From positions 9,997 through 73,996 of the forward strand of contig JAOZSR010000005.1 of the NCBI GenBank assembly GCA_029939575.1: a stretch of DNA of 64,000 bases. Direction: 5' to 3'. Source of the DNA: Fidelibacterota bacterium (GTDB taxonomy: Bacteria; Fidelibacterota; UBA2242; JAOZSR01). This document shows positions 2-34,800 of this stretch, piece after piece. The position numbers and the translations under genes were made by a program. The notes below the pieces were generated by a model. It searched no databases. It was not told the DNA's origin and saw only the letters and a list, made by a program, of their open reading frames with translations. Every line of letters begins with the position of its first letter. Within the stretch, counting starts at the first letter, position 1.

Positions 2-451
2 CTTGCAACATCTGAAAGTGCAATTGAGCATGGAATCAGGGAGATTGAAAAAGATGGCAGAGAATTAAATATTATTGCCTTTTTACAATGTACCAGCCCA
101 TATCGTCCGGATAATAGTTTAGAAAAGGCGGTTAGTAAATTTATTCATGGGGATTTTGATTCTCTTCTCACAATATCCCCAACACATAGGTTTTTTTGGA
201 AAATAGATGGGAAGAAAGCAATTCCGGAATATGATTTTATAAACAGACCTCGTAGGCAGGATTTAAAAGCAGAAGATATTCGATATATTGAAAATGGATC
301 TTTTTATTTATTCACAAGGAAGCATTTTATGGAAACAGGGAATCGGTTGGGCGGTAAAATGGGATATTATATAATGGATGAAGAATATTCCCTGGAAATT
401 GATACTGAATTAGATTTTCAATTATTAGAAAAATTGGCGGCAAAGGAATGA
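2..451 (+). CDS. neuA: CMP-N-acylneuraminate/KDN cytidylyltransferase (NeuA/CMAS family), 5'-truncated by window edge
   Basis: Manually translated frame 2: LQCTSPYR, NRPRRQD, YIENGSFY, GGKMGY, EIDTELDF; stop TGA 449-451 overlaps the next ATG (ATGA). Confidence 0.9.
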   Translation, partial: LATSESAIEHGIREIEKDGRELNIIAFLQCTSPYRPDNSLEKAVSKFIHGDFDSLLTISPTHRFFWKIDGKKAIPEYDFINRPRRQDLKAEDIRYIENGSFYLFTRKHFMETGNRLGGKMGYYIMDEEYSLEIDTELDFQLLEKLAAKE

Positions 452-2418
452 TTAGTTTGAAATTAAAGAAATTAATTAATTTTATTCCCTATAGTTTTTT
501 GTATTTAGCAGGTGCTTTTATCTCTATGATAATCTTGATCGCCTTATGGAGAGTTGCATTCTTGATTTCATTATCCGATCAGTTAAGTATATCAGAATTT
601 TTCTTATATCTTAAAGCTTTTTATATTGCACTCAGGTTGGATGGAGTTATTACTGCATATTTAGTTGCACCTATATCATTAATAATTTTCCTGCCCTGGA
701 TAGGATGGAATTCCCGATACTTTAAATTATTTAGTTTAATATATTTCGGTCTGGCTTTTACTGTACTTAATACTCTCTATTTAATTGATATTAATTTTTA
801 TAAAGAATTTGGTAATCATTTAAATTTTCAACTTTTTCAACCCTGTGTCAGGCAACATGATACTATTGAATTTTTTTTGAAAGAATATCCGGTTTTTCTA
901 TTTCTATTCATTATTATTTTGACTTCCTTTGTTGCAATTTTTTCATTTAGAAAGATATATTTTAAAGTAAAAAATCATGATTCAAAATGGTGGACAAATC
1001 TTTTGTTTTTACCAATAACTCTTATTTTATTGGTAATATTTGCCAGGGGTGGTTTGCAGCAGCGACCAATAGATTGGGGACATGCAATGTTTTGCAAAAG
1101 TAACCCGGCAAATCAAATTGCTTTGAATGGAGTATTTCTGTTAGGTCGTTCCTATATTGAGTTACATTCTGAAAAAAAAATCAAAGAATCCTTAACCTAT
1201 TTTAATTATGAAAAAGCTAAAAAAATTGCCAATGATCTTAATGAAACCACAATTGAGCATAAAGTATTGTATGATATTAATAAAAATAATCAACTGAAAA
1301 ATCCGAATGTTATTCTGATTATTTTGGAGTCTCATGTCGGAGCCTATTGTGGATATATTAATCCTGCAATGAAAGATGTAACACCGGTACTTGATTCATT
1401 GGCTCATAATGGCATTGGATTTACAAGATGTTTTGGAAATGGAAGACGTTCGGCTCATGGTATAGGATCAATTTTATGTTCTTATCCGGTTTTACCGGGA
1501 TTTCCGATTATTTCCCAAATTGAGGCTCAGCGAAATATGAAAACCGGTGGCTCTGTTTTTAAGGAATATGGTTATGAAACAACTTTTTTATATGGCGGTG
1601 ATGCAGACTTTGATAATATGAAAGGTTTTTTGAAATCAAATGGATTTGATAATATCATAGAAGAGGCTGCTTTTACAGAAGGTACTCCGGGAACTATGTG
1701 GGGAGTATACGATCATTATGCTTTTGATAAACTCTTGTCCCTTATGGATAATGGGAAGGGAAGAAAACAATTTATTTCTTTGTTCACAACAACAAACCAT
1801 CAACCCTGGGAGGTTCCTCCATCCTATGAATCCATTGTTCCTCAATTTACGAAGAAAGATGTAGAAAGACCTAAAACTTTACGCACAATGAATTATGTTG
1901 ATTTGGCTATTAAAGAATTTATGAAAAAGGCAAGATTAAGAGATTGGTTTGAAAATACTGTATTTCTGTTTATTTCGGATCATGGCTTGAGAATATTTCA
2001 TGACATGCCAGAAGATCCCAGGAATGGGCATATAGCCTTTGTAATTTATTCACCTGCTTATATAAATAATCCAGTTATTATTCCCAATATTGTAAGTCAG
2101 GTTGATCTTTTACCGACTTTATTGCATTTAATCAATAAAAAACCTGAGCCTGAATTTTTAGGGAGAAATATGATAGTTGATAAAACCGGTTTTGCCTGTC
2201 GTGTATCAAATGATAATTGTATATGGATTGAAAAAAACAGTATTTATTATGAAGTATTAAATCAGAATAATTATCTCTTTAAGTATAATGATATCTATGA
2301 ATATCCATACCAGGAAATACCAAAATCTGATAGTTTGTTTTCCATTATGCAGACAAGGTTTCGGGGTTATATTCAGTCAGCATATTTTAATTTTAAAGAT
2401 AAGATTGTAAAAAATTAA
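448..2418 (+). CDS. LTA synthase family (LtaS/alkaline-phosphatase superfamily) membrane phosphotransferase
   Basis: About 5 N-terminal TM segments, then ILIILESH metal site, NGRRSAHG nucleophile loop, TTTNHQPW, FISDHG, SQVDLLPTLL. Confidence 0.85.
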   Translation: MISLKLKKLINFIPYSFLYLAGAFISMIILIALWRVAFLISLSDQLSISEFFLYLKAFYIALRLDGVITAYLVAPISLIIFLPWIGWNSRYFKLFSLIYFGLAFTVLNTLYLIDINFYKEFGNHLNFQLFQPCVRQHDTIEFFLKEYPVFLFLFIIILTSFVAIFSFRKIYFKVKNHDSKWWTNLLFLPITLILLVIFARGGLQQRPIDWGHAMFCKSNPANQIALNGVFLLGRSYIELHSEKKIKESLTYFNYEKAKKIANDLNETTIEHKVLYDINKNNQLKNPNVILIILESHVGAYCGYINPAMKDVTPVLDSLAHNGIGFTRCFGNGRRSAHGIGSILCSYPVLPGFPIISQIEAQRNMKTGGSVFKEYGYETTFLYGGDADFDNMKGFLKSNGFDNIIEEAAFTEGTPGTMWGVYDHYAFDKLLSLMDNGKGRKQFISLFTTTNHQPWEVPPSYESIVPQFTKKDVERPKTLRTMNYVDLAIKEFMKKARLRDWFENTVFLFISDHGLRIFHDMPEDPRNGHIAFVIYSPAYINNPVIIPNIVSQVDLLPTLLHLINKKPEPEFLGRNMIVDKTGFACRVSNDNCIWIEKNSIYYEVLNQNNYLFKYNDIYEYPYQEIPKSDSLFSIMQTRFRGYIQSAYFNFKDKIVKN

Positions 2419-2543
2419 TAATAAGAATGTTTGGAATTTATTTTTTTTAGTTTATTCATTAATGTATATTCAGGACAGTGTTTTTGAATAAGATATTTTA
2501 ATGTAAGTAAATAGGAAAATAAGAATAAGAGTGAGTTGTTAAT

Positions 2544-3596
2544 ATGAAAAAAAATATAAGAATTGGTACCAGAATTATCAGCGAAAATCATCCGGCATTA
2601 ATTATTGCTGAAATTGGTATTAATCATCAGGGCGATGTGAATATTGCCAAAGAGATGATAAAAACCGCAAAAGAGTGTGGCGTTGATGCAGTAAAATTTC
2701 AAAAAAGAACCACTAATAAAGTTTTAACAAAAAAGGCCCTCCAAAGAAACTATGAAAACCGTAACAGTTTTGGAAAAACTTATGGTGAACATAGAGAGGC
2801 TTTAGAACTTTCCTATGAAGAATATTATGTTCTAAAAGAATATGCAGATAATATTGGAATACTATTTTCTGCTTCAGGATGGGATGCCGAGAGTGTTGAT
2901 TTTTTAGATAAACTAGGAGTACCTTTTTTCAAAGTTGCTTCAGGAGATTTGACAAATCTACCATTAGTTGAACATACGGCAAGAAAGAACAAACCTCTTA
3001 TTTTATCAACCGGGATGGCTGACATTGAGACTATAAAAAAAGTATATGAAACTACTGTTAAAATTAATGATTCTGTTGCAATCATGCACTGCACTTCCAG
3101 TTATCCAACACCTTTTAATGAAATCAACTTAAATGTTCTCAGTACATTTCAGAAAGAATTTCCAAAAGTGATTATCGGCTATTCCGGGCATGAACTTGGA
3201 ATTGCCATTCCACCGGTTGCTGTAGCCCTTGGTGCTAAAATTATAGAAAGACATTTTACACTTGATCGTACAATGCGAGGTGGAGATCATGCTGCTTCCC
3301 TGGAGCCACAGGGATTATCAAAAATGGTGAGGGATATCAGGCATATCGAAGAGGCTATGGGGAGTTTTGAAAAGAGAATCCAGGCATCTGAATTGAGTGT
3401 AAAAAAGAAATTAACCAAGAGTATTGTTGCATCCCGGGATATCAAACGTGGCGAAAGTATAACAGCAGATATGATAATAACCAAAAGTCCTGGTGAGGGA
3501 ATTTCTCCTTTAAGAATTACTGAAATTATTGGTAAACAGGCAAAAAATGACATAGAAAATGATACTGTGATTTATGAGAGTGATATAAAGTGGTAA
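2544..3596 (+). CDS. neuB: N-acetylneuraminate(-9-phosphate)/KDN-9-P synthase family with C-terminal SAF/AFP-like domain
   Basis: IIAEIGINHQGD, VKFQKR, FKVASGDLTN, HCTSSYPT, GYSGHE, IERHFTLD, DHAASLEP. Confidence 0.93.
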   Translation: MKKNIRIGTRIISENHPALIIAEIGINHQGDVNIAKEMIKTAKECGVDAVKFQKRTTNKVLTKKALQRNYENRNSFGKTYGEHREALELSYEEYYVLKEYADNIGILFSASGWDAESVDFLDKLGVPFFKVASGDLTNLPLVEHTARKNKPLILSTGMADIETIKKVYETTVKINDSVAIMHCTSSYPTPFNEINLNVLSTFQKEFPKVIIGYSGHELGIAIPPVAVALGAKIIERHFTLDRTMRGGDHAASLEPQGLSKMVRDIRHIEEAMGSFEKRIQASELSVKKKLTKSIVASRDIKRGESITADMIITKSPGEGISPLRITEIIGKQAKNDIENDTVIYESDIKW

Positions 3597-4090
3597 GCCG
3601 GGAGTTGATTAAAAAAATTGCCGGGATAAAAGTAGTCGCTACTGATATAGATGGCGTTTGGACTGATGGTAAAATGTATTATTCAGCCGATGGCGAATTT
3701 ATGAAAGCTTTTTCCACTTACGATGGTTTTGGAGCAAATTTGCTTGAACAGGCCGGATTTCCAGTAATTATTCTCACTGGCGAAAATTCAATGCCGGTAA
3801 AAAGCAGGATGGAAAAACTGGGTCTGAAGCATGTGTATTTAGGTGTAAAAGATAAATTATCCCTGGCTCGGGAAATATGTAAAAAATTCAATGTTAATTT
3901 ATCAGAAGTAGCTTATATAGGTGATGATTTAAATGACCTTGAATTATTAGCTAACGTAGGATTTTCTGCTATGGTTCCCAATAGTCCGGTATTATCACAA
4001 TTCAAGCCCGATTATCAGATTAAAAGATTTGGAGGCAATGGTGCCTTTAGAGAATTTGCTGATTTAATCTTAAAATACAACAAAAAATAA
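3590..4090 (+). CDS. kdsC: KdsC-family HAD phosphatase (Kdo-8-P/KDN-9-P phosphatase)
   Basis: DIDGVWTDG, ILTGE, AYIGDDLND, GGNGAFREFADLI; GTG start overlaps the neuB stop. Confidence 0.9.
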   Translation: MVSRELIKKIAGIKVVATDIDGVWTDGKMYYSADGEFMKAFSTYDGFGANLLEQAGFPVIILTGENSMPVKSRMEKLGLKHVYLGVKDKLSLAREICKKFNVNLSEVAYIGDDLNDLELLANVGFSAMVPNSPVLSQFKPDYQIKRFGGNGAFREFADLILKYNKK

Positions 4091-4104
4091 CCTAATGACA
4101 TAAC

Positions 4105-5373
4105 ATGATTGGATATTTTTTATATAATATAATTCTCTTGATTTTATTTCCCTTTATATACATCGGTTTTATTTTTCATAATAAAGGGCGCGAGCATCTT
4201 TTACAGCAGTTGAAATCTATTCGTGATGCAAAAAAAATCATGATAGAAAAAAAGAATTCACGTAAAGTTGTTATTTTTCATGCTGCTTCAGCCGGGGAGT
4301 TTGAGCAAATAAAGCCAATTCTTAAGAGAATAGACCGAGATAAATATTTTTTATTGCAAACCTTTTATTCACCAACAATTTATAATAAAGAGAAAAATAC
4401 AATATTAGCTGATGCGATTTGTTATCATCCGTTGGATTTCATTTGGTCTGCGATTTATTTTTTTTGGGTTTTTAAGCCTGATTTTTTTATTATCACCAGG
4501 CATGATATATGGCCAAATCATCTCATTTTTGCCAAATTATTTGGAGCCCGAACTCATTTAATCAATGCCAATCTTCATAAAGAATCTCTGAGATTAATTA
4601 GTGGATTTAAAGAGTCTAACAAGTGGCTTTTTAGAAAGTTTGATTCTATTTTAACAGGCTCTGAGAGATTAAAAAATAATTTAATGAAAATAGTTCGAAA
4701 AGGTAAAATTGAGGTTTCCGGGGATTCCAGATTTGATCAGATTATTGATAGAATAGGTGACCGTAATTCTGACTGTTTTCCAAAAGATATTTATAATAGT
4801 CAGAATATTATCCTGGGAAGTATTATCCCCTCAGATTATAATGTGATTTTCCAAGGGATTAAGAAATTTTTCCCACAGGGTAAGAAGTCTTTAGCCGAGC
4901 AAAAAAGAAGAATCATAATAGTTCCCCATGAAATACGCCCTCTTCACCTGAAAAAGATAGAAAAGGAACTAAATAAAATAGATATGCAATATGCCTATTT
5001 TTCCGATATAAAAAATAAAATACCAGAAAATATTATTATTGTTGATTCCGTTGGAATATTAGCTGATTTGTATAAATATGGAGATGTAGCTTATGTAGGA
5101 GCCGGATTTGGGGCTGGTGTACATTCGGTTATAGAACCTGCTGTTCACAAATGTGTTGTGTCTTTTGGACCTAATATAAGCATATTGGATGAAGCGATTT
5201 CTATGCATGATTTGCAGATTGGAATAATGGTAAAAAATGGGGAAGATTTTTTTGAATTTTTAAAAATTTTAGATAATCCTGAAGAATTAACAAAATTGAA
5301 AGAACAAACAACAAATTTTATTGATAAAAATATAAATAATTCCAATCATATCATTTCATTAATATTTGGTTAA
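4105..5373 (+). CDS. waaA: 3-deoxy-D-manno-octulosonic acid (Kdo) transferase, GT30
   Basis: N-terminal TM anchor, FHAASAGEF, GDSRFDQ, IVPHE, DSVGILADLY, VHSVIEPA. Confidence 0.88.
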   Translation: MIGYFLYNIILLILFPFIYIGFIFHNKGREHLLQQLKSIRDAKKIMIEKKNSRKVVIFHAASAGEFEQIKPILKRIDRDKYFLLQTFYSPTIYNKEKNTILADAICYHPLDFIWSAIYFFWVFKPDFFIITRHDIWPNHLIFAKLFGARTHLINANLHKESLRLISGFKESNKWLFRKFDSILTGSERLKNNLMKIVRKGKIEVSGDSRFDQIIDRIGDRNSDCFPKDIYNSQNIILGSIIPSDYNVIFQGIKKFFPQGKKSLAEQKRRIIIVPHEIRPLHLKKIEKELNKIDMQYAYFSDIKNKIPENIIIVDSVGILADLYKYGDVAYVGAGFGAGVHSVIEPAVHKCVVSFGPNISILDEAISMHDLQIGIMVKNGEDFFEFLKILDNPEELTKLKEQTTNFIDKNINNSNHIISLIFG

Positions 5374-5386
5374 AATTAAATAGTAT

Positions 5387-6058
5387 ATGTCCGCAATATT
5401 GTTACAAAATATTCTGTTTTCTTACATTGAAAATATGCAAAATTCATCATTTAGGATGGATATCAATTTAGAAATTCCGATTGCAAAGTGGGTAACAATA
5501 ACTGGTGATTGCGGATCAGGTAAAACAACTTTAATAAAATTATTGGCAGGACTGCTTAAACCTGGGAAAGGTAATATTTTTTATCCGGATAATCTTAATA
5601 ATGATATAGGCTATATTTTTCAGAATCCAGATAATCAGTTTGTTCATTTTAATATTGAACGGGATGTTGCCTATAAACTTGAAAATCAAGGAATGAAATT
5701 TTCTTATATGCGACCAAAAGTAAAAAAATCTCTAGAAGAGGTAAATCTCTGGGAACGGAGGAATGATTCCCCTAACCAGCTTTCCGGAGGTCAAAAACAG
5801 CAGTTAGCTTTAGCCGGAATGTTAATTTCTGATCCACAGGTAGTAATTTTTGATGAACCTACATCGTTTCTTGACATTGTTGCCAGGCAAAAATTATTTC
5901 AGAAAACCCGTAAATTAGTTAATGAAAAACGTAGTGTCATTTGGTCAACTCATGAAGAAGATGTAATCCGGCAATCAGATTATGTTATTGAGTTGAAAGC
6001 CGGAAAGGTGAGCTTTGCAGGGAAAAGCAGAAAATATTTGTGTCGAAAAAATGTATGA
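5387..6058 (+). CDS. ecfA1: Energy-coupling factor transporter ATPase A1 (CbiO/EcfA family)
   Basis: GDCGSGKT, IFQNPDNQF, LSGGQKQ, FDEPT, STHE. Confidence 0.8.
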   Translation: MSAILLQNILFSYIENMQNSSFRMDINLEIPIAKWVTITGDCGSGKTTLIKLLAGLLKPGKGNIFYPDNLNNDIGYIFQNPDNQFVHFNIERDVAYKLENQGMKFSYMRPKVKKSLEEVNLWERRNDSPNQLSGGQKQQLALAGMLISDPQVVIFDEPTSFLDIVARQKLFQKTRKLVNEKRSVIWSTHEEDVIRQSDYVIELKAGKVSFAGKSRKYLCRKNV

Positions 6059-6780
6059 AAAATAATAAATATATATCAATCGAGAATTTGAAATTTCGCT
6101 ACTCAGGACAGAATGATTTCCGGCTTAATATTGAAAATTGTGAAATTGTGAGAGATAACATATTAGGAATATATGGATTAGCCGGTTCAGGAAAAACCAC
6201 ATTGGGTAAACTCATAGCCGGAATGTTGACTCCGGAATCCGGATCTGTTTTTTATCGGGAAAATGGGATTGATAGTTCAATTTCAGGGAAAAATATTATC
6301 TACTCGATGCAATTCCCTGAAAATATATTCCTGGGTATTACCATTTATGAAACTGTAGAGAAATTAGTCAAAAATCATGAAAAGGGATCTGAAATAGAAA
6401 TAGATCTGCAAACATATCTGAAATTTTTTGATGTTGATTACGATTTAATAAAAAAACGAAATGGATATGAATTAAGTTCGGGAGAGTTAAGACGTTTTGC
6501 CCTTTGTTTGAGCCTGGCATGCAGTCCGGATTTGCTGATTTTGGATGAACCGACAATTGCTTTAGGACAAAAAGGAAAGAGGCAATTACAGAATTTAATA
6601 TTAGATTTAACCAAAAAACAGCAGGTGGTAATAATATCCCATGATTTTGAATTACTTCGGGAATGTTGTGATTATTTTTGGATTATTGACAATGGGGAAA
6701 TTGTTTTTAAAGGAAAAATTCCACAAATTAGGAACAATATTGAGCTTTTGAAAAGAACAGGGTTAATATATTATTTTTAA
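6055..6780 (+). CDS. ecfA2: Energy-coupling factor transporter ATPase A2
   Basis: GLAGSGKT, QFPE, LSSGELRR, LDEPT, ISHD; ATG 6055 forms an ATGA overlap with ecfA1 (ORF track uses GTG 6040). Confidence 0.75.
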   Translation: MKNNKYISIENLKFRYSGQNDFRLNIENCEIVRDNILGIYGLAGSGKTTLGKLIAGMLTPESGSVFYRENGIDSSISGKNIIYSMQFPENIFLGITIYETVEKLVKNHEKGSEIEIDLQTYLKFFDVDYDLIKKRNGYELSSGELRRFALCLSLACSPDLLILDEPTIALGQKGKRQLQNLILDLTKKQQVVIISHDFELLRECCDYFWIIDNGEIVFKGKIPQIRNNIELLKRTGLIYYF

Positions 6781-6820: not shown

Positions 6821-8332
6821 ATGACTAATAAAGTTAGAGAAAGATACGAGCAAATACCTGTGAACAGAGTGGTCACAGTATCAAATATTATTTCAATATT
6901 AAGAGCAGCACTTGCTTTGCCAATTGTATATTTTTTAATTGAATCTCAGGAATTAATTGCATTTATATTGATAATTATTGCTATTGTATCAGATATGCTG
7001 GATGGATGGTTAGCCAGAATAAGTAATGATATCACTGAATTGGGTAAAATGCTTGATCCTTTGGCTGATAAAATTGTTATTTTTAGCATAATGCTCTATC
7101 TGATTTTTACCGATGTAATGCCAGTTGAATTTTTTGGCTTTTTATTGCTGCGAGATTTAACAATATCCCTTTTGGGAATATATATGTTAAATAATCGAAA
7201 CGTTTCTCCCAAATCTAATAAGATGGGTAAAGTTTCGGTTATTTTTACTACTGCTACAACATTGGTTTATTTATATTCTGAAAAATTTCCCGGGATACAG
7301 CAGGTTCAGATTCCTTTGGTATATATTTCTATAGTATTTCTATCTATATCCTGGATACAATATTGCTATTCATATATTGGTTTTTTTCAAAGAAAAATAT
7401 CTGGAATAAAATCAAAAGATAAATATGATAGATTAGCCAAGGGCTTATCAAAAACCGAAACCAGTTTGGCTGCAAAACTCCCTCTATTTGGAAAATTTTT
7501 TACTGTTGACGAGACAATTTTGGATGATATTGAAGCAGCCTTGCTATCTGCTGATATTGGGGTTGATCTGACTGAAGAATTGATTAAAAAATTAAAACTG
7601 GTAAAAAAATCAGAATCAACCAGGTTAAATGATATTTTGAAAGATGAATTAAAAACATTAATAAAACCCAAACAACATGAAGTCCAAAATGTAAAACCCA
7701 GGGTTATTTTGATGGTTGGAGTAAATGGAACTGGAAAGACGACAAGTATTGGTAAATTGTCATCATTATTTACAAAGCAGGGTAAAAATGTTTTAATAGC
7801 GGCAGCTGATACATTTCGGGCGGCCGCCTATGACCAACTAAAAATTTGGTCTGTCAGATCGGGAGTTGAATTTTTAGGTAATCCCCAGGGAAAAGATCCG
7901 GCGGCTGTTGCCTTTGATGCTGCAAGGTCAGCAGTTGCAAAAAACAAGGATGTGCTGATAATCGATACAGCCGGCCGTTTACATACAAAGTCAAATCTGA
8001 TGCAGGAACTTGCTAAAATGAAAAAGGTAATAAAAAAGGTTATACCTGAAGCCCCACATGATGTTTGGCTGGTTCTGGATTCTACTATCGGACAAAATTC
8101 GATTCTTCAGGCTCAGGAATTTACAAAATCAGTTGGAGTTACCGGGCTAATATTAACAAAATTAGATGGAACTGCAAAAGGGGGTGTTGTATTGGCAATT
8201 CATAAAAAACTTAACATTCCTATATATTATCTTGGAGTTGGAGAGCAATTGGACGATATGGTAGAATTTGATTCGGAAAAATTTATTAATGCGTTGTTAG
8301 ATGAACATACAAAATTAGGATTTCAAAAATGA
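6821..8332 (+). CDS. ftsY: Fusion: CDP-alcohol phosphatidyltransferase (PgsA-like, about aa 1-190) plus SRP receptor FtsY NG domain
   Basis: DMLDGWLARISNDITELGKMLDPLAD motif with multiple TMs, then GLSKT, GVNGTGKTT, DTFRAAA, DTAGR, TKLDGTAKGG in one frame. Confidence 0.9.
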   Translation: MTNKVRERYEQIPVNRVVTVSNIISILRAALALPIVYFLIESQELIAFILIIIAIVSDMLDGWLARISNDITELGKMLDPLADKIVIFSIMLYLIFTDVMPVEFFGFLLLRDLTISLLGIYMLNNRNVSPKSNKMGKVSVIFTTATTLVYLYSEKFPGIQQVQIPLVYISIVFLSISWIQYCYSYIGFFQRKISGIKSKDKYDRLAKGLSKTETSLAAKLPLFGKFFTVDETILDDIEAALLSADIGVDLTEELIKKLKLVKKSESTRLNDILKDELKTLIKPKQHEVQNVKPRVILMVGVNGTGKTTSIGKLSSLFTKQGKNVLIAAADTFRAAAYDQLKIWSVRSGVEFLGNPQGKDPAAVAFDAARSAVAKNKDVLIIDTAGRLHTKSNLMQELAKMKKVIKKVIPEAPHDVWLVLDSTIGQNSILQAQEFTKSVGVTGLILTKLDGTAKGGVVLAIHKKLNIPIYYLGVGEQLDDMVEFDSEKFINALLDEHTKLGFQK

Positions 8333-27511: not shown

Positions 27512-28738
27512 ATGAAAAAAATATTTTTATTTATCGTTATATTAATAAGCACGAATTGTGCTTTATTCGCACAAAGTGAAGCTGGTGCGATTTGGCTATT
27601 GATAAATCCCGGTGCCAGGTCTTGCGGAATGGGTGAAACAGGTGCTGCTATTGCGAATGATACTTATGCTACATATTTTAATGCTGCGGGATTAGGCTTT
27701 CTAAAAGGTCATGAAATATCAGCCATGCATACAAACTGGTTGCCAAATCTGGCAAGTGATATGTATTATGATTTTATTGGTGGTAGAATGTATATCGAAA
27801 ATGTGGGTACTGTAGGAGCTAATATTACCATGATGAATCTTGGTACACAAACTGCTACAGATGAACAGGGCAATGTTTTAGGAGAATTTGATTCATATAT
27901 GTTAGCTGCCACTGCATCTTATGGCTCTAGATTATCAAGAACTACTTCTTTTGGTATAAATATTAAAATGATCCATCAGCACCTGACAGATTTCCTTGCC
28001 GGAGCAGAAAAAGGGAAAGGTGCTTCAACTAATTTTGCTTTTGATGTTGGCTATATGAAAAAAGAATTTTTATTGAAAAATCTCATATTGGGAGCTTCAA
28101 TCTCTAATATTGGACCAAAAATTTCGTTTATTGATGTTGCTCAGGCTGACCCAATGCCTACTAATTTAAAATTGGGATTTAATTTTCGGGCTATTGACCA
28201 GGAATATAATAAATTATCGATCACCTATGATATGAACAAACTGTTAGTTGCTTCATATCCAGACCGGGATATTGATGGCGATGGAGAAGTCGGGCAATAT
28301 AATGAAGACGGATTGCCTTTTCCGGGTGGGGAATATAATAAAGATGGAAAAAGAGAGCATGCTCATTCAGAAGAATGGTATACTGGTATTTTTACTTCAT
28401 GGATTGATGATTGGTTTTTATTAAAAGATTCTGCAGCAGACGGAATTGGTGATAAAGATAAAGATGGTGATACAAACGACGGTTCTCTGTCAAAAGAGAT
28501 AGAAAAACTTACTCATAATTTTGGTGTTGAATATTGGTACTCCAACCTGTTTGCAATTCGCTGTGGTTTTATCTATGATAAACCCGGGAAAATTTTGATG
28601 AAAGATAAATATCCTGTTCCGACTTTTGGAGCCGGATTGCGTTATGCCGGAATGGGTTTTGATTTTGGATATACTTATGGAGATCAGGGACATCCAAGAG
28701 CAAATACAATGCATTTTTCTATTAATATGAAATTTTAG
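27512..28738 (+). CDS. porV: PorV/PorQ family outer-membrane barrel (T9SS shuttle-like)
   Basis: INPGARSCGMGE, NAAGL, HTNWLPNLASDMYY, PTNLKLG, GVEYWY, C-terminal FSINMKF. Confidence 0.82.
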   Translation: MKKIFLFIVILISTNCALFAQSEAGAIWLLINPGARSCGMGETGAAIANDTYATYFNAAGLGFLKGHEISAMHTNWLPNLASDMYYDFIGGRMYIENVGTVGANITMMNLGTQTATDEQGNVLGEFDSYMLAATASYGSRLSRTTSFGINIKMIHQHLTDFLAGAEKGKGASTNFAFDVGYMKKEFLLKNLILGASISNIGPKISFIDVAQADPMPTNLKLGFNFRAIDQEYNKLSITYDMNKLLVASYPDRDIDGDGEVGQYNEDGLPFPGGEYNKDGKREHAHSEEWYTGIFTSWIDDWFLLKDSAADGIGDKDKDGDTNDGSLSKEIEKLTHNFGVEYWYSNLFAIRCGFIYDKPGKILMKDKYPVPTFGAGLRYAGMGFDFGYTYGDQGHPRANTMHFSINMKF

Positions 28739-28744
28739 GAAATA

Positions 28745-31700
28745 ATGAAAAAAAATATTCTTAGTTTACTGATAATATTAACAGTTACAGTTGGGTTATA
28801 TGCCAACAATCCTGTGAATAATATAAAATTATCCTTTTTGAATAAAAAAACAGTTTCAAAGCAAGTCGCTAAAAATTTGAGAAGCATCAAAATTTGCGCC
28901 CTGAGAGTTTCTTTTCAGAGTGATGAAAATGATGGTACTACCGGTGATGGTGATTTTCTGAAAAATGAAATTACCGATACATTATGTAATAATATCTGGA
29001 TAGACCCTCCTCCTCATAATCGCAGTTATTTTAAAGCACATATTAAATCTCTTTCAAACTATTATAAACAGGTTTCCAGGGGTAATTTTAATATTGACAC
29101 AATGAATTCGGAGATATTTCCTCTTGAAGAGAATAAAAGTTTTCAACTTTCCCATAAAATGGATTATTATCACCCATTTTTAGAGAAAGATTCAATTGAT
29201 GTGAGATTAGCCAGGCTTTTTACTGAATCTATTATTTTAGCCGATTCAGACATTAATTATTCTGATTATGACCTTGTAGTTATATTTCATGCCGGTGTTG
29301 GACAGGACTTTTCCATTCAACTTGACCCTACTCCTTATGATATTCCTTCTGCTTATATGAATATTAATGATATTCGACTTGGAATGAACTCTGACAATGA
29401 TGATCTCCCAGGAATTTCAGTTGATAATGGAAGTCATTTGATCTCAGATGGAATTATTTTACCGGAAAGTCAAAATCATTTGATCTATGACAATTGGGAA
29501 GATGTTTTTGGTAGTTCTGCTAATCCCTGTGAATACCAGATGGGATTGAATGGTACTTTTGCTTTTATGGTTGGATTTTATTTAGGATTACCCGGATTAT
29601 ATGATACTAATACCGGTGATACCGGGATTGGAAAATTTGGTCTGATGGATCAGGGTTCAGCAAATTTGAATGGTCTGGCAGCCGCTGTTCCTACTGCCTG
29701 GTCAAGATATTTTTTGGGATGGGTTGAGCCTGTAGTTGCCGGATCTTTCCAGGAAGTTAGTCTGCACCATGCAGAATCAAATTCTGATACTTTAATGTGG
29801 AAGATCCCAATTAATAATCATGAGTATTTCCTGGTTGAAAATCGCTATGCAAATGTGAGACCCGGAGTCAGTCTTGACAGTATTCAATATAGAATTTATG
29901 TGGAAAATGGTGAAGATGAATGGCCTCCATTATTACCATTGATCAAAGACTCGGCAAACACAGAATTTTGTGAAGAAACCGGTGTTCTAATGTCAATGGA
30001 AAACTATGATGTCGGTTTACCGGGATCTGGTTTGCTAATCTGGCATATTGACGAAAATATTATTAATGCAAACCTGTCTGACAATACTGTAAATGTAGAT
30101 AAAGAAAATCGCGGTGTTGATCTGGAAGAAGGAGATGGAGCACAGGATTTGGGTTATCCTGCTATGATGTTTGGCTCACCTGTTGATATTGGTTGGTTTT
30201 TTGACCCGTGGTTTGCCGGGAATGATGGTTTCTGGGAATTAAATCCTGATTTTCCTGAAGATAGCATTAAAAGTGTATCTTTTACGGATTATTCTAATCC
30301 TTCATCCAGAGCAAATGATTTAACTAATACCGGAATTAAGATCGAAAAAATCGGGCATGCAGGCAAAATAATGAATTTTGTAATTTCAAGAGAAAATAAT
30401 GTTGATAATTATCCTCTTGCCACTAATTTTCCAAATGCTCACATAACCGGATGTGATCTGGATGATACAGATAATTCCGAAGAATTTATCCTGATTACCG
30501 ATTCACTTTACCTTTACAATAGTTTAGGTGAATTATATACAAAAACTTCCCTGGCAATTCCCACTGATAGTCTATGTTGGTCAAAAGGTCTTGTTGTTAA
30601 TAATGATGACAAAAATTTACTTTTTCTTTTTTCCCGAAAAATTGACTCTACCAGCGTAATTAGTTACTGGGAAGTAAGTGAAACTGATATAAACTTAATA
30701 AAATGTGTATTTATCGGTGATATTCGATTAACCGGAAATTTATTTCCACGAGTTAATGAAATACTTTTTGGGGGATTTGATTCTGAAAATAAACTTTTCA
30801 GTTATTCCCTGATTGAACATACTTTTAAACCGGTTAACAACAACTATAAAATTGGACATATTGCAGGTATGGAAAATAAGACATTTGCTATTGCCGATGA
30901 TAATATTTTGGTAACTATTGACGGTGATTATCAAATTGATGAGATTGAAGAATTACCCGGTTTAAGCAATAATATTGTAGTTGGTTACATTAATGAAAAT
31001 AACAGCCCTGATATAGTTGTTAGCAGTGACAATTCTATAATACTTTTTACTGATCCACTAACCGAAGAAATGAATAAAATCAGCAGAATTTCTGATTTTT
31101 CAGGTAGATATCCGATTTTGTCTGATATTGATGCTGATGGACGGGTTGAAATTATTGTCAGAGATAGTTTAAGAATTTTTTCCTTAAATGAAAATTTAGT
31201 TATTGAAGAAAACTTTCCTGTTACTATTCCAAATATTTATAGTACTAAATATTTTAATTCTCTGTTATTTACAACTGATATTGATGGTGATGGTGTTTTG
31301 GATATTGTTACTAATATTCAGGATGTAGGGACTGTGTCCTATGATTATAAAGGAAATATGGTAGAAAATTTTCCACTTGTTTTTGCAAATCATAACAAGT
31401 TTGACCAGATTTTAATCAATTCTTCAAATGGAGTATATAACCTGGCAATAAATAATGATAACCGGGAATTAATTTGTCAAAAAATTTCTGATGAATATTT
31501 ATCAGAAAATTCCTGGAATGCCTTTGGTGGAAATAAGATAAATAATTTTTATTATAGTCCGATTTCGGGAAATACTCTATCATTATCAGGTGAACTTCTA
31601 AATAAGCAAAAAACCTTTAACTGGCCAAATCCGGTAAAAGGAACAAATGTGACATTTATCAGGTATTATACTGAAAAAGATTGTGAAATTGATATTGACA

Positions 31701-31882
31701 TTTTTGATTTAGCTGGTGATTTTATAACCTCCTTTCATGATTCAAATCCAAAAATTGCTGAGTACAATGAGAAAAAATGGAATGTTTCCGGAGTAGAGAG
31801 TGGAGTTTATTTTGCAGTTGTCAAAGCAATTTCCGGATCAGAAACAGAGACAAAAATTGTTAAAATAATGGTTATAAAATAA
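28745..31882 (+). CDS. M6 (immune inhibitor A)-like pseudo-metalloprotease with FG-GAP-like repeats and T9SS-type C-terminal sorting domain
   Basis: IFHAGVGQD, GTFAFMVGFYLGLPGLYD (no HExxH), EYFLVENR, GLLIWHID, DIDADG/DIDGDG, NWPNP..IFDLAG..SGVYF..KIVKIMVIK. Confidence 0.78.
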   Translation: MKKNILSLLIILTVTVGLYANNPVNNIKLSFLNKKTVSKQVAKNLRSIKICALRVSFQSDENDGTTGDGDFLKNEITDTLCNNIWIDPPPHNRSYFKAHIKSLSNYYKQVSRGNFNIDTMNSEIFPLEENKSFQLSHKMDYYHPFLEKDSIDVRLARLFTESIILADSDINYSDYDLVVIFHAGVGQDFSIQLDPTPYDIPSAYMNINDIRLGMNSDNDDLPGISVDNGSHLISDGIILPESQNHLIYDNWEDVFGSSANPCEYQMGLNGTFAFMVGFYLGLPGLYDTNTGDTGIGKFGLMDQGSANLNGLAAAVPTAWSRYFLGWVEPVVAGSFQEVSLHHAESNSDTLMWKIPINNHEYFLVENRYANVRPGVSLDSIQYRIYVENGEDEWPPLLPLIKDSANTEFCEETGVLMSMENYDVGLPGSGLLIWHIDENIINANLSDNTVNVDKENRGVDLEEGDGAQDLGYPAMMFGSPVDIGWFFDPWFAGNDGFWELNPDFPEDSIKSVSFTDYSNPSSRANDLTNTGIKIEKIGHAGKIMNFVISRENNVDNYPLATNFPNAHITGCDLDDTDNSEEFILITDSLYLYNSLGELYTKTSLAIPTDSLCWSKGLVVNNDDKNLLFLFSRKIDSTSVISYWEVSETDINLIKCVFIGDIRLTGNLFPRVNEILFGGFDSENKLFSYSLIEHTFKPVNNNYKIGHIAGMENKTFAIADDNILVTIDGDYQIDEIEELPGLSNNIVVGYINENNSPDIVVSSDNSIILFTDPLTEEMNKISRISDFSGRYPILSDIDADGRVEIIVRDSLRIFSLNENLVIEENFPVTIPNIYSTKYFNSLLFTTDIDGDGVLDIVTNIQDVGTVSYDYKGNMVENFPLVFANHNKFDQILINSSNGVYNLAINNDNRELICQKISDEYLSENSWNAFGGNKINNFYYSPISGNTLSLSGELLNKQKTFNWPNPVKGTNVTFIRYYTEKDCEIDIDIFDLAGDFITSFHDSNPKIAEYNEKKWNVSGVESGVYFAVVKAISGSETETKIVKIMVIK

Positions 31883-31883
31883 T

Positions 31884-34800
31884 ATGAATATATTAAAAAG
31901 ACACGTATTATGCGTTTTACTCATAATCTTAATAATAATTCCGGCAAATAGTTTTGCACAATTTTCAATTTTTAGATATAATCATCCGGAATTAGAGTGG
32001 AAAACATTTGAAACAAAACATTTTAGTGTTCATTATCATGAAGGTGCAGAATGGACAGCACAACAAAGTGCTGAGATCGCTGAGTCGATTTATGAACCTG
32101 TTACATCATATTATGATTTTCAACCTGATAAAAAAACTGATTTAGTTATCAAAGATACTGATGATGTTTCCAACGGAGCAGCATATTATTATGATAATAA
32201 AATAGAAATATGGGCTTCACCTTTAAATTTTTTATTACGCGGGAATCACAGCTGGTTACGTGATGTAATCACCCATGAATTTTCTCATATTGTATCACTT
32301 CAAAAGGGGATGAAATTTTCCCGTAATATACCGGGATTTTACTTCCAGGCAATTGGTTATGAAAAAGAAAAAAGAGATGATGTGATCTATGGTTACCCTT
32401 CGATTATCGCCTCTTATCCGATGCCCGGTTTGGTGATACCTATGTGGCTGGCCGAAGGAATTGCACAAAATATGTACCCTGGTTGCGGAAATGATCTCTG
32501 GGATACACATAGAGATATGTTAATGAGAGACAGAGCTTTATATGACAATATCCTTTCTCTTAACCAAATGGGCTCGTTTGGGAAACGGGGAATAGGAAAT
32601 GAAACTGTTTATAATCAGGGATATGCATTTGTACGTTATTTAAATAAGAGATTTGGAGATAATATTTGTCCTGATTTAATGGATAGAATATCGACACCAT
32701 TGCAAATTTCTATTAGTAATGCTCTAAAAAAAGAGACAGGGATTTCCGGATATAAAATTCATGAAGAGTGGAAAAAACAAATAACAGATAATTATAATGA
32801 ATTAACAAAAACTATCCGGGAGAATTCTGTTATTGGGGATATTTTGGAAAAAGGTGCTACTACCCAGATTTATCCTCAATGGTCTGGAGATTCTTTATTA
32901 TATTTTCTCTCCAATAAAGGGATGGATTCATTTTATTATACATCTCTTTATGTTTATAATACTAAAACTCAAAAGTCTGAATTAATAAAAGAAAATGTTC
33001 GTTCCAGGGTTTCTCCTTCACCGGATGGGAAATATATTTATTATTCAAGAAAAAGTTTACCAAACAAAGTCGGGTCAATATTTTATGACATTTATCGCTT
33101 GAATCTTGTTGACAAAGAAGAGGAACAGATTACTTTTTTTCGCCGGGCAATAAACCCTATACTTTCTCCCTGTGGAGAAAAAATTGTTTTTGTTACGATT
33201 AAAGATGGAAATTCAAATCTTGTAATCAGGAACCTTGATGAAGAAGGAAAAGAAACTGTTATAACTGATTTTTCTAATGGTGAACAACTTTTTGCTGCAA
33301 ATTTTTCACCTGATGGTAAAAAAATTGTCTTTGATTATTCTATAAATCATGGGCGTGATATTTTTGTTTATGAAATTGAATCGGAAAAAATCAGTTTGTT
33401 GGTTAATGGAGATTACGATTCACGTAATCCTTTTTATAGTCCTGATGGGAAATGGCTTTATTATTCATCTGACCAAACCGGAATTTTTAATATTTATCGC
33501 AAATCACTTGATAATAGCGAAACGCAACTTCTTACAAATGTACTTGGTGGGGCTTTTATGCCAACTGTAAATGAACAAGGAGTTTTGTGCTTTTCCCTTT
33601 TTAATGAATCAGAATATAGAATAAGTGTTTTGGAGAATCCCAAACCCTTAGATATTAGTCTATCCAGATATAAACCTGAGTATAAGGAAAATATTCCTGA
33701 AATGTCATATGTTGCTTCATTAAATAATTTAGAGGAAACAAAGTATAAAGACCGCTTTTCCAAATATTTTTTAATGCCGAAATTAATGCTTGATTATGGA
33801 ACTGTAAAACCGGGGTTGTATTTTTTTTCTAATGAAATAATAGACAGGTTTAATGTTTTTGGAGCAATTGCCGGAAATATACAAGGTGACAAAGACCTGG
33901 CAATGTTAGTTGAATATCATCAATGGACACCAACTTTTTATTTTGAAATTTATAGTATGAGTCGCAGTAAATTTGGTATCCAGGATACTATTAGTTCTTA
34001 TCCAATAGAATTTGATTATACATTTCATCTAATCCAATCTGTACTGGGTGCGTCATTGCCATCAAAAGGATTTAACAAATTTCGTTTTGATATGATATTA
34101 TCTAAGTTTCGTACTGCCACGGATGAAAGAATTCCAGAAGAAGGTATTTATCAAAATGGTTTTACTTATGATTATTATAAGGGTATAAATTTTAAACTTG
34201 ACTGGATTTTTAAAAAAATAATGTATTCGGTTAACCAGGAAACTAATCCAAATAACGGGATGCAGATAACAACTAGTATTTACAGAAATTATGACCGTTT
34301 CATTGAGGGTTTTGATGTTAATGGAAGTTATGGAACTTTGGAAACTCAATTTAGCAAAAATTATTATTGGAAATTAGAGCAGGAAGGTGTTGTGCATCAT
34401 AAGATACCTGTTATTTCGGATTTGATTGGGAATTTTAAATGGAAAGCCGGTTGGATATCAAATCGGAATATTGATTCATTCTTCAATTTTTTCGGTGGAG
34501 GATTACCTGGTTTGCGTGGATATCCTTTTTATAGTATTGAGGGTAGAAACCTTTTGAGTTTTCATTATACATTGAGGTATCCGATATTTTTAGAAAAGGA
34601 TATTCAGATAGGACCTTTTAATTTGCAGAATAGTATTTTGGGGCTATTTGTTGAATCCGGAAATGCCTTTGATGATATTCAGGGTTATCCTGATTTGAAA
34701 TGGGATGAATTTAAATCGTCACCAATAGATGTGATTTCAAATATTGGGAAAGATTTTAAAAGTGATGTTGGGATTGAATTAAAATTTAGTGGCTTTTCTT

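Follow-up and report, generated by a model that had tools for sequence, protein, structure and literature searches.

A predicted CMP-Kdn pathway encoded beside the lipid A glycosyltransferase gene waaA in a Marinimicrobia-related bacterium

Directly before the gene for the enzyme that adds the first sugar to lipid A, both in this organism and in its relatives, lie genes predicted to make CMP-Kdn, which suggests that Kdn probably belongs to the innermost core of the LPS; it might even replace Kdo, a supposedly universal component. The source is an uncultured, Marinimicrobia/SAR406-related bacterium (FCB group) from hydrothermal or marine sediment. Within the window, the 64,000-nucleotide stretch that was analyzed, the region from 2 to 5373 carries its genes on the + strand throughout (Table 1). 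The same sequence is present in two independent assemblies (ENA and JGI) and, at a word share of 0.99 to 1.00, in Logan contigs from two runs, and thus the locus is not an assembly artifact.

Table 1. Genes at the left end of the window
Feature	Position	Strand	Supporting match
CMP-Kdn synthetase gene (CMAS/NeuA type), 3' part, 149 codons (predicted)	2..448	+	Pfam CTP_transf_3 on full gene
LtaS-like membrane protein, 656 aa	448..2418	+	Pfam Sulfatase, 123 bits
NANS-type NeuB + SAF, predicted Kdn-9-phosphate synthase	2544..3596	+	Pfam NeuB, 295 bits, + SAF
KdsC-family type C0 HAD, predicted Kdn-9-phosphate phosphatase	3590..4090	+	NCBIfam KDN-9-PPhBT, 175.3 bits
GT30 (WaaA/KdtA family), predicted lipid IVA ulosonate transferase	4105..5373	+	Pfam Glycos_transf_N, 106 bits

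The cytidylyltransferase, synthase, HAD phosphatase, and WaaA genes named in the original prediction were all found in place and co-oriented, with the motifs claimed for them; its gene list was incomplete, however, as the LtaS-like gene between the cytidylyltransferase gene and neuB had been left out. The genes are tightly packed: the start of the LtaS-like gene overlaps the cytidylyltransferase stop (ATGA), the GTG start of the HAD gene lies inside the 3' end of neuB (7-nt overlap with the neuB stop), the HAD stop is followed by the WaaA start after 14 nt, and no terminator-like site was found between the genes of 2 to 5373. The edge of the window splits the cluster, and its 5' part lies outside. 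The full cytidylyltransferase gene encodes 226 aa (L001:9324-10004) and starts ∼230 nt to the left of the window; the genes farther 5' encode a DUF6716 protein, an ATP-grasp-like protein, a GT4 enzyme, a GT29 sialyltransferase-like protein, and MsbA. The whole is best explained as a conserved LPS inner-core operon, of which the window holds the downstream half.

This organization is widespread among relatives. Of 74 related loci whose flanks are long enough, 68 have the HAD gene directly 5' of waaA (median gap, 15 nt), a linkage far beyond chance that persists down to 34% WaaA identity, and the order NeuB-HAD-WaaA occurs in 51 of 71. The neuB-kdsC-waaA linkage, whose absence from related genomes would have spoken against the original prediction, is thus kept. 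The LPS setting follows from the GT30 gene, from the ABC exporter upstream, whose best match is MsbA (502 bits), and from the lpx genes downstream in relatives: no fewer than 10 related loci have lpxD, lpxC/fabZ, lpxA, skp, and bamA 4 to 8 kb farther 3', and the lpxA/C/D genes of these bacteria are canonical. The GT29 sialyltransferase-like protein is short (196 aa; Pfam match of 55 bits against a cut-off of 23). In many related loci its gene is directly 5' of the CMAS gene, an adjacency that marks a submodule typical of a sialyltransferase and its own donor synthetase.

The phosphatase points to Kdn. Against NCBIfam it scores higher with KDN-9-PPhBT (just under the cut-off of 180) than with KdsC (143.6 bits), and its best PDB match is the Kdn-9-P phosphatase BT1713 of Bacteroides thetaiotaomicron (3E81; 132 bits), which bears out the parallel with the Kdn pathway of that species drawn earlier. 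Glu56 and Lys67 of BT1713 have their counterparts in Glu65 (codon 3782) and Lys76 (codon 3815), and each of these two residues is present in 72 of 73 WaaA-linked HAD homologs. The lone exception, from locus L069, has Arg and is of the KdsC type.

The cytidylyltransferase, with its RPRRQD, ENGSFY, and GGKM motifs, is of the CMAS rather than the KdsB type, as had been proposed: it scores 118 bits with the CMP-Kdn synthetase of Prymnesium and 115 with mouse CMAS but 81 with the Neisseria enzyme and ∼36 with KdsB, and its best PDB matches, PpNeuA (9t4z) and mouse CMAS (1QWJ), are far above KdsB. The codon at 344 to 346 (CGG) encodes an Arg at the position of Arg196, the Kdn gatekeeper of Prymnesium PpNeuA; this Arg is kept in 54 of 54 relatives, and mouse CMAS has Leu. 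Arg196 sets the Kdn specificity of PpNeuA, where it clashes sterically with the 5-N-acetyl group, and the R196L exchange turns the enzyme to Neu5Ac (PMC12934254).

The synthase carries KFQK at amino acid 51 and KALQRNYENRNSFGKTYGEH. It is NANS-like rather than Neisseria-like, in agreement with the original prediction: it matches human NANS at ∼48% identity and 338 bits, versus 190 bits for N. meningitidis NeuB; with TIGR03569 it scores 374 bits, under the cut-off of 399.65. We predict that it is a Kdn-9-phosphate synthase using PEP and mannose-6-P. A characterized NANS-type Kdn-9-P synthetase takes Man-6-P as its sole substrate, with 0% conversion of Ara-5-P (PMC6200933). One residue points elsewhere. 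Where human NANS has Met42, the synthase has Thr, and the human M42T enzyme reportedly loses Kdn-9-P synthase activity. Together with the ability of NANS-type enzymes to use ManNAc-6-P, this would fit Neu5Ac, or a different 5-N-acyl sialic acid, as the product, whichever enzyme transfers it. We consider such a product quite improbable, given the conserved gatekeeper Arg, the BT1713-type phosphatase, and a cluster in which no ManNAc-forming gene (UDP-GlcNAc 2-epimerase, ManNAc kinase, or NanE) was found.

CMP-Kdn, made by the phosphorylated route of animals and Bacteroides, is thus the well-supported candidate product of the cluster, as judged from the Glu/Lys pair of the BT1713-like HAD, the gatekeeper Arg, the lack of a ManNAc-forming gene in the cluster, and the Man-6-P specificity of the characterized synthetase. 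NeuB would convert PEP and mannose-6-phosphate to Kdn-9-P, the HAD phosphatase would release Kdn, and the CMAS-type enzyme would use CTP to form CMP-Kdn; these genes would be cotranscribed with those for lipid A glycosylation, decoration, and export (GT30, LtaS-like, MsbA, GT4, DUF6716, and GT29). The original prediction had also allowed that the NANS-fold enzyme replaces KdsA. In its full form, the synthase, HAD, and CMAS would be nonorthologous replacements of KdsA, KdsC, and KdsB that make CMP-Kdo from arabinose-5-phosphate, in keeping with the position of the three genes where Kdo synthesis is expected in such an operon and with the lack of kds genes nearby. We regard this as highly unlikely, since both the phosphatase and the cytidylyltransferase carry Kdn-type specificity residues: the former has the Glu/Lys pair and not the Arg of KdsC, and the latter retains nonulosonate-binding residues, including the Kdn-specific Arg (PMC12934254). 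The lack of Ara-5-P conversion by the characterized synthetase argues in the same direction.

As had been noted, kdsA, kdsB, and kdsD are missing from the window: tblastn with the E. coli proteins gave no match at an E value of ≤0.01, and Pfam tables covering most of the window likewise contained none. A DAHP_synth_1 gene ∼6 kb past the right end is not kdsA but encodes an AroF-type DAHP synthase (430 bits). Among the related loci, 79 of 80 have no canonical kdsA, kdsB, or kdsD within ∼10 kb of waaA, including those that have msbA and lpxA/C/D alongside; the same tblastn detects LpxA at 45% identity and, elsewhere, a KdsB at 34%. This search covered 20-kb neighborhoods, and as kds genes are often scattered, absence from them says little. 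In a Gemmatimonadota locus (L079), a genuine kdsA (99 bits with the KdsA model, 39 with DAHPS) lies ∼1.8 kb from MsbA-CMAS-NeuB-HAD-WaaA.

Which sugar does WaaA transfer? The GT30 protein has an N-terminal hydrophobic helix, its motifs HAASAGE, VPHE, and GVHSVIEP line up with those of WaaA, and its sole PDB match is Aquifex WaaA (2XCI). To our knowledge, all characterized GT30 enzymes transfer Kdo or a Kdo derivative, and we know of no GT30 with a nonulosonate donor and of no analyzed LPS that lacks Kdo. The reading that we prefer, to which we give about an even chance of being correct, is that WaaA adds Kdo and that Kdn is added next; besides the donor of known GT30s, it draws on the GT29 gene beside the CMAS gene, on the kdsA of L079, and on precedent in marine proteobacteria (PMC5811610). 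WaaA would place Kdo, from CMP-Kdo made by kds genes assumed to lie elsewhere in the genome, onto lipid IVA; the GT29-like enzyme, possibly along with the putative glycosyltransferase DUF6716, would then join Kdn to the lipid A-proximal core. MsbA would next flip the lipid A that bears this Kdo-Kdn inner core, and the LtaS-like enzyme would decorate it once it is in the periplasm.

Several observations count against Kdo followed by Kdn and favor instead a GT30 that is a CMP-Kdn:lipid IVA Kdn transferase in an organism without a Kdo pathway, in which a second Kdn, possibly attached by the GT29-like enzyme, would give Kdn2-lipid A, an analog of Kdo2-lipid A. Among 60 related loci for which 5 kb or more of upstream sequence is available, only 30 have the GT29 gene, and the closest linkage is that of NeuB-HAD-WaaA rather than of the Kdn genes with GT29. 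In streamlined, low-GC lineages, (NeuB)-CMAS-HAD-WaaA stands by itself amid housekeeping genes, and its vicinity encodes no further glycosyltransferase. The Kdn-linked WaaAs, including that of the window, form one clade, and its sister is L069, which is paired with a KdsC-type phosphatase, a pattern expected from a donor switch. The kds genes are not found near WaaA, msbA, or lpxA/C/D in nearly all loci, and CMAS and HAD occupy the places of kdsB and kdsC in other LPS clusters. Even so, we hold replacement of Kdo by Kdn to be a tentative and rather doubtful alternative. It goes against the known donors of GT30s and the presence of Kdo in LPS analyzed so far, L079 retains kdsA beside the same cluster, and the neighborhoods searched tell little of scattered kds genes. 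Transfer of a 9-carbon ulosonate by WaaA, as raised in the original prediction, is also weakened by the GT29 gene just 5' of the window, outside the sequence on which that prediction was based, whose product could be a conventional user of CMP-Kdn.

The same linkage would also fit a GT30 that is a specialized paralog transferring Kdn to a lipid or core acceptor, with a canonical WaaA and kdsA/kdsB elsewhere making Kdo-lipid A. Such a paralog would be compatible with the kdsA of L079, and the scan patterns used for WaaA relatives are clade specific, so that they would miss any canonical WaaA that these genomes encode. We think it unlikely: no second GT30 was found in any related locus or in the known 82 kb of this genome, and in several genomes the lpxA/C/D cluster adjoins this GT30, as suits a primary WaaA. 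One metagenome-assembled genome has two WaaA loci, but both are Kdn linked, and it is probably a mixed bin, since the remaining species have one type or the other.

The cluster combines features of several known systems. B. thetaiotaomicron, also of the FCB group, is reported to have a Kdn-9-P synthase (BT1714), the phosphatase BT1713, and a CMP-Kdn synthetase, and the three-step phosphorylated route and the Glu/Lys pair are shared with it. The Bacteroides Kdn genes are not known to be linked to waaA or msbA, unlike here, where the predicted pathway is joined to a lipid A core operon, a linkage kept across the group. The affinity of the CMAS to PpNeuA and mouse CMAS, with the gatekeeper Arg, recalls the sets of Prymnesium parvum (PMC6200933, PMC12934254) and vertebrates, and the similarity of the synthase to human NANS (∼48%) and the GT29-type gene alongside recall the vertebrate NANS/NANP/CMAS/GT29 set. 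In contrast to these, the genes form a bacterial operon with LPS as the predicted acceptor, the phosphatase is of the KdsC family rather than the NANP type, and the GT29 protein is short. With the E. coli Kdo pathway (KdsD, KdsA, KdsC, KdsB, WaaA, MsbA) the cluster shares the logic of synthase, phosphatase, CMP activation, GT30, and MsbA flipping, as well as recognizable GT30, MsbA, and LpxA/C/D homologs, but the synthase is of the NeuB family instead of KdsA, the activating enzyme is of the NeuA/CMAS type instead of KdsB, and the phosphatase residues are of the Kdn type.

The lipid A-proximal ulosonate is variable: Ko in Acinetobacter and Burkholderia and 8-amino-Kdo (Kdo8N) in Shewanella are variants of Kdo at this position, and WaaA can take a modified donor (CMP-Kdo8N). 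Both are Kdo derivatives with 8 carbons, and their synthesis runs via KdsA, whereas Kdn has 9 carbons, and we found no report of a 9-carbon Kdn at the lipid A-proximal position in the literature searched. Bacterial GT29 genes are described from marine alpha-, gamma-, and epsilonproteobacteria, along with an LPS core bearing neuraminic acid on Kdo (PMC5811610). That system, with its GT29-like enzyme, Gram-negative marine host, and inner-core nonulosonate (predicted in our case), is the model for our preferred reading of Kdo followed by Kdn; the report does not include the Marinimicrobia group, Kdn specificity, or an operon link to waaA (PMC5811610).

The LtaS-like gene makes up 37% of the region from 2 to 5373; of 60 related loci, 14 have it at the equivalent place. 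Its product has five predicted N-terminal transmembrane helices and an extracytoplasmic sulfatase-fold domain; it matches OpgB and LtaS weakly in NCBIfam, and its PDB matches are VP1736 (152 bits) and Listeria LtaP/LtaS. We predict that it transfers a phospho-polyol, such as glycerol phosphate, onto the core in the periplasm.

Five co-oriented genes at the left edge of the window are predicted, on sequence grounds, to form an operon that ties CMP-Kdn (Kdn being a 9-carbon sugar) to lipid A core assembly and export. The neuB and phosphatase genes overlap by 7 nt, a spacer of 14 nt separates the phosphatase gene from waaA, and a sequence scan found no terminator-like sites between the cluster genes. 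The original prediction was correct about the genes that it named, the motifs that it quoted, and both of these junctions, which are confirmed and extended here; it omitted the LtaS-like gene that overlaps the cytidylyltransferase stop codon, and its interpretation is supported in part. A scan for promoters and terminators was uninformative (the genome is AT-rich and of the FCB type), and the whole window gave no Rfam matches. When we sought evidence of cotranscription, the runs holding the cluster sequence proved to be DNA only, with no RNA-seq. Two independent assemblies contain the same sequence, as do contigs from two further runs; every one of these sources is a hydrothermal-vent or marine-sediment metagenome. 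The cluster extends to the left of the window, and the 10 kb upstream on the same contig were examined as well.

Genes of the cluster and its surroundings, in contig order. L001 is the window's own contig region; coordinates without this prefix are window positions.
Feature	Coordinates	Strand	Basis and remarks
TatC			
Polyprenyl synthase			
DUF6716 gene adjoining the gene of a 352-aa ATP-grasp-like protein	L001:3505-5606		
GT4			
GT29 sialyltransferase family protein, 196 aa	L001:6847-7437, ~2.7 kb left of window base 1		Pfam Glyco_transf_29, 55.2 bits (gathering cut-off 23), profile positions 59-269 covered
MsbA-type ABC exporter			Best model MsbA, 502 bits
CTP_transf_3 cytidylyltransferase, last 149 codons	2..448	+	Full gene of 226 aa, L001:9324-10004
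LtaS-like protein, 656 aa	448..2418	+	Five predicted N-terminal TM helices (hydropathy scan); predicted extracytoplasmic sulfatase-fold domain, Pfam 123 bits
NeuB + SAF domain	2544..3596	+	NeuB TIM-barrel domain, Pfam 295 bits; C-terminal SAF/AFP-like domain, Pfam 45 bits
KdsC-family HAD phosphatase	3590..4090	+	NCBIfam models; PDB
GT30 WaaA	4105..5373	+	Glycos_transf_N, Pfam 106 bits (cut-off 23.9); sole PDB relative Aquifex WaaA (2XCI), 67 bits over residues 49-389
Two ECF-transporter-type ABC ATPases	5387-6780	+	
PgsA-FtsY fusion, single 503-aa ORF	6821-8332	+	
PorV, then two ORFs of >1000 aa each	27512-34937	+	

The PorV and Por_Secre_tail genes of the window suggest a host of the FCB group. 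WaaA homologues with 45 to 68% identity come from metagenome-assembled genomes (MAGs) named "Candidatus Marinimicrobia" and "FCB group," and the 80 related loci are labelled mostly Neomarinimicrobiota/Fidelibacterota. The host assignment is thus one by best hits rather than by phylogenomics. The cultured member of the phylum has been reported to possess an outer membrane bearing an LPS layer (PMC11652737). In at least 10 related loci, lpxD, lpxC/fabZ, and lpxA (36 to 45% identical to their E. coli counterparts), skp, and bamA lie 4 to 8 kb from WaaA; no lpx genes were seen in the 82 kb known of this genome. Judged by gene content, these bacteria make lipid A, which means that the acceptor is available.

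Three enzymes bear on the identity of the sugar. The phosphatase passes the model of the KdsC/YrbI subfamily, TIGR01670 (142 bits; cut-off, 107), and its catalytic DxD aspartates are invariant. Its best-scoring model is NF058599, the NCBIfam Kdn-9-P phosphatase, at 175.3 bits, a narrow miss of the cut-off of 180, versus 144 bits for the KdsC model, and its best structure match in the PDB is BT1713, the Kdn-9-P phosphatase of Bacteroides thetaiotaomicron. Glu65 and Lys76 fall in the columns of BT1713 Glu56 and Lys67, each kept in 72 of 73 WaaA-linked homologues; E. coli KdsC and the related locus L069 have Arg at position 56 (BT1713 numbering). Lu in 2009 and Daughtry in 2013 are said to have identified Glu56 and Lys67 as specificity residues, and PDB entry 4HGQ is the E56A mutant of BT1713.

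The cytidylyltransferase (CMAS) matches PpNeuA, the CMP-Kdn synthetase of Prymnesium parvum, at 118 bits, mouse CMAS at 115, and the N. meningitidis enzyme at 81 in the PDB, versus at most 36 bits, over the N-terminal part only, for KdsB; it is thus vertebrate-CMAS-like rather than of the KdsB type, as had been proposed. Within its GNRLGGKM motif, an Arg (codon 344-346) occupies the position of PpNeuA Arg196. This gatekeeper Arg is kept in 54 of 54 relatives and is Leu in mouse CMAS. Arg196 has been described as confined to Kdn-specific enzymes, and R196L turns PpNeuA to Neu5Ac (PMC12934254).

The synthase, too, was rightly described as nearer to animal NANS than to bacterial NeuB: it scores 338 bits with 48% identity against human NANS (a reconstructed reference sequence) versus 190 bits against N. 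meningitidis NeuB, and 374 bits on TIGR03569 (NeuB_NnaB), below the cut-off of 399.65. A phosphorylated substrate for this enzyme would fit with the 9-P-type phosphatase encoded next to it, and the cluster holds no ManNAc-forming gene. One point argues against Kdn as the product: the synthase has Thr at the position of human NANS Met42, and the M42T substitution reportedly abolishes the Kdn-9-P synthase activity of the human enzyme. Because the phosphatase markers, the CMAS Arg, and a NANS-like synthase without a ManNAc-forming gene coincide, we predict CMP-Kdn as the product of the pathway. The option that the NANS-fold enzyme instead replaces KdsA, raised in the original prediction, is highly unlikely.

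The cluster proteins and the E. coli Kds and Lpx proteins were compared by tblastn with 80 loci of ~20 kb each, centred on WaaA relatives; the set was found with a WaaA alignment as the query, a single WaaA protein having given no match. The linkage of neuB, kdsC, and waaA on which the original prediction depended is conserved, with a NeuB-HAD-WaaA arrangement in 51 of 71 loci. Upstream sequence of 600 nt or more was available for 74 loci. In 68 of these, HAD (the phosphatase) lies directly upstream of WaaA in the same direction, with a median gap of 15 nt, and in 2 more it lies on the opposite strand no more than 2 kb away; the remaining 4 are L069 and three Chlorobium/Bacteroidales loci. Where at least 5 kb upstream was available (60 loci), CMAS was found in 45 and GT29, conserved as its neighbour, in 30; MsbA was present in 17 and the LtaS-like gene in 14. 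Two submodules recur, GT29-CMAS and NeuB-HAD-WaaA, and the cluster is also found in high-GC Gemmatimonadota (L044 and L079), a Chitinispirillum MAG (L038), and "Eisenbacteria" MAGs (L011 and L013). A reverse scan of metagenomes anchored on CMAS, a generic pattern, returned 80 loci that were mostly unrelated NeuA clusters, with six close relatives informative. WaaA stood beside the pathway only in close relatives (at least 49% identity), and more distant NeuA-KdsC-like-NeuB clusters had no adjacent WaaA.

A neighbour-joining tree puts the Kdn-linked WaaAs into a single clade of 73 members, with the Chlorobium, Bacteroidales, and E. coli WaaAs outside it. The sister of this clade is L069, whose WaaA instead precedes a KdsC-type phosphatase and lptB. 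The best NCBIfam WaaA equivalog score of the window's enzyme, 136 bits, is below the cut-off of 363. We considered this as a mark of new specificity and take it as evidence neither way: Chlorobium WaaA reaches only ~155 bits, so the NCBIfam models do not cover FCB-group enzymes.

Some SAR406 genomes of very low GC (26 to 29%; L040 to L043, L074, and L081) carry a variant module that ends in WaaA and has housekeeping genes around it (ATP synthase, a MutY-like gene). Its NeuB has 289 aa and no SAF domain, its CMAS is only ~36% identical to that of the window, and in its HAD two extra residues precede the specificity Glu. Two loci of the MAG CAYVBB01, L041 and L060, hold different Kdn-linked WaaAs at the same GC of 0.26. 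We rejected these as a sign of paralogous modules; because all other species show only one WaaA type, the bin probably mixes two SAR406 lineages.

Which donor the WaaA uses is a separate matter. We see about an even chance that it adds Kdo, the usual lipid A-proximal sugar, and that Kdn is added next by the GT29 or DUF6716 protein. To our knowledge, the donor of every characterised GT30 enzyme is Kdo or a Kdo derivative, and kds genes are usually scattered in genomes. The GT29 sialyltransferase-like enzyme, often immediately beside CMAS, would be a conventional consumer of CMP-Kdn. Bacterial GT29 genes, previously reported from proteobacteria only, and an LPS core bearing sialic acid on Kdo have been described (PMC5811610). 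A genuine kdsA (99 bits on the KdsA model versus 39 for DAHPS) also speaks for Kdo: in L079, from a high-GC Gemmatimonadota genome, it sits beside pyrG, ~1.8 kb from an MsbA-CMAS-NeuB-HAD-WaaA cluster, with pyrG and kdsA (L079:15-2110, minus strand) divergent to that cluster.

L079 is, however, the only locus of the 80 with a canonical Kdo gene beside the Kdn-WaaA cluster. In the other 79, tblastn with the E. coli Kds proteins found no kdsA, kdsB, or kdsD within ~10 kb of WaaA, nor did it find kds genes in the window or its flanks. This absence favours a WaaA that adds Kdn in cells without Kdo, as do the very tight and ancient adjacency of HAD, or of NeuB and HAD, to WaaA, the stand-alone (NeuB)-CMAS-HAD-WaaA module of streamlined low-GC SAR406 genomes, and the single clade of Kdn-linked WaaAs with its KdsC-linked sister. 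Marinimicrobia (SAR406/Fidelibacterota) and some FCB relatives would then link core to lipid A through Kdn in place of Kdo and lack KdsA, KdsB, and KdsD; the GT30 enzyme would be a CMP-Kdn:lipid IVA Kdn transferase, its donor supplied by the NANS-type synthase, the Kdn-9-P phosphatase, and the CMAS-type synthetase. We regard this as possible but doubtful, and a GT30 paralogue specific for Kdn, with a canonical WaaA elsewhere in the genome, as improbable.

Whether Kdn follows Kdo or replaces it, the literature searched held no papers tying Kdn to WaaA or lipid A, or on Kdo genes in Marinimicrobia; within it, the waaA-Kdn gene linkage and a Kdn-lipid A are undescribed. Kdo is regarded as the one invariant sugar of LPS, and WaaA as essential and strictly Kdo-specific. 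SAR406/Marinimicrobia are abundant worldwide and nearly uncultured, and a eukaryote-like Kdn pathway appears hard-wired to their WaaA and MsbA, a coupling shared by some Gemmatimonadota and Fibrobacterota. At a minimum, we predict a Kdn-bearing inner core in highly abundant dark-ocean and sediment bacteria, which would touch phage receptors, grazing, surface charge, and endotoxin recognition. The maximum case, if true, would be the first natural Kdo-free LPS, together with the first GT30 enzyme to take a nonulosonate as its donor. One bacterial cluster here unites a NANS-like synthase, a CMAS-like synthetase, and a transferase of GT29 type, which also bears on the origin of eukaryotic sialylation, and the cultured Fidelibacter multiformis makes the donor question directly testable.

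Other genes hint at further modification of the core. The nearest structures to the LtaS-like protein are VP1736 (152 bits) and Listeria LtaP/LtaS (48 to 50 bits). Some relatives carry, between MsbA and GT29, genes for a TagF-like glycerophosphotransferase and an IspD-SDR fusion that resembles the CDP-ribitol enzymes TarI/TarJ (L018:2681-5099, in a related locus). Together, the TagF-like, IspD-SDR, and LtaS-like genes are hints of a teichoic-acid-like polyol-phosphate decoration of the LPS core. Upstream, the GT29 protein has only marginal PDB matches (E about 0.5), and the DUF6716 protein, a putative glycosyltransferase, weakly matches the BFO_1060 transferase family. Its 352-aa neighbour has weak ATP-grasp similarity (D-Ala-D-Ala ligase/RimK) and might attach amino acids to sugar acids.

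Downstream of waaA lie the two ECF-type ATPase genes, the PgsA-FtsY fusion, and RimO/MiaB. The first ATPase gene starts 13 nt past waaA and the two overlap by 19 nt; neither a T nor an S component of an ECF transporter is evident near them. A DAHP_synth_1 gene ~6 kb to the right of the window was tried as a KdsA candidate and is actually AroF. The first of the >1000-aa ORFs after PorV has a weak Por_Secre_tail match, a feature of type IX secretion cargo. In the fusion ORF, a PgsA-like CDP-alcohol phosphatidyltransferase with five predicted TM helices is joined to an entire FtsY NG domain (the JGI assembly version has 462 aa at 92% identity by tblastn), and the PgsA-like enzyme appears to replace the usual membrane-anchoring N terminus of FtsY.
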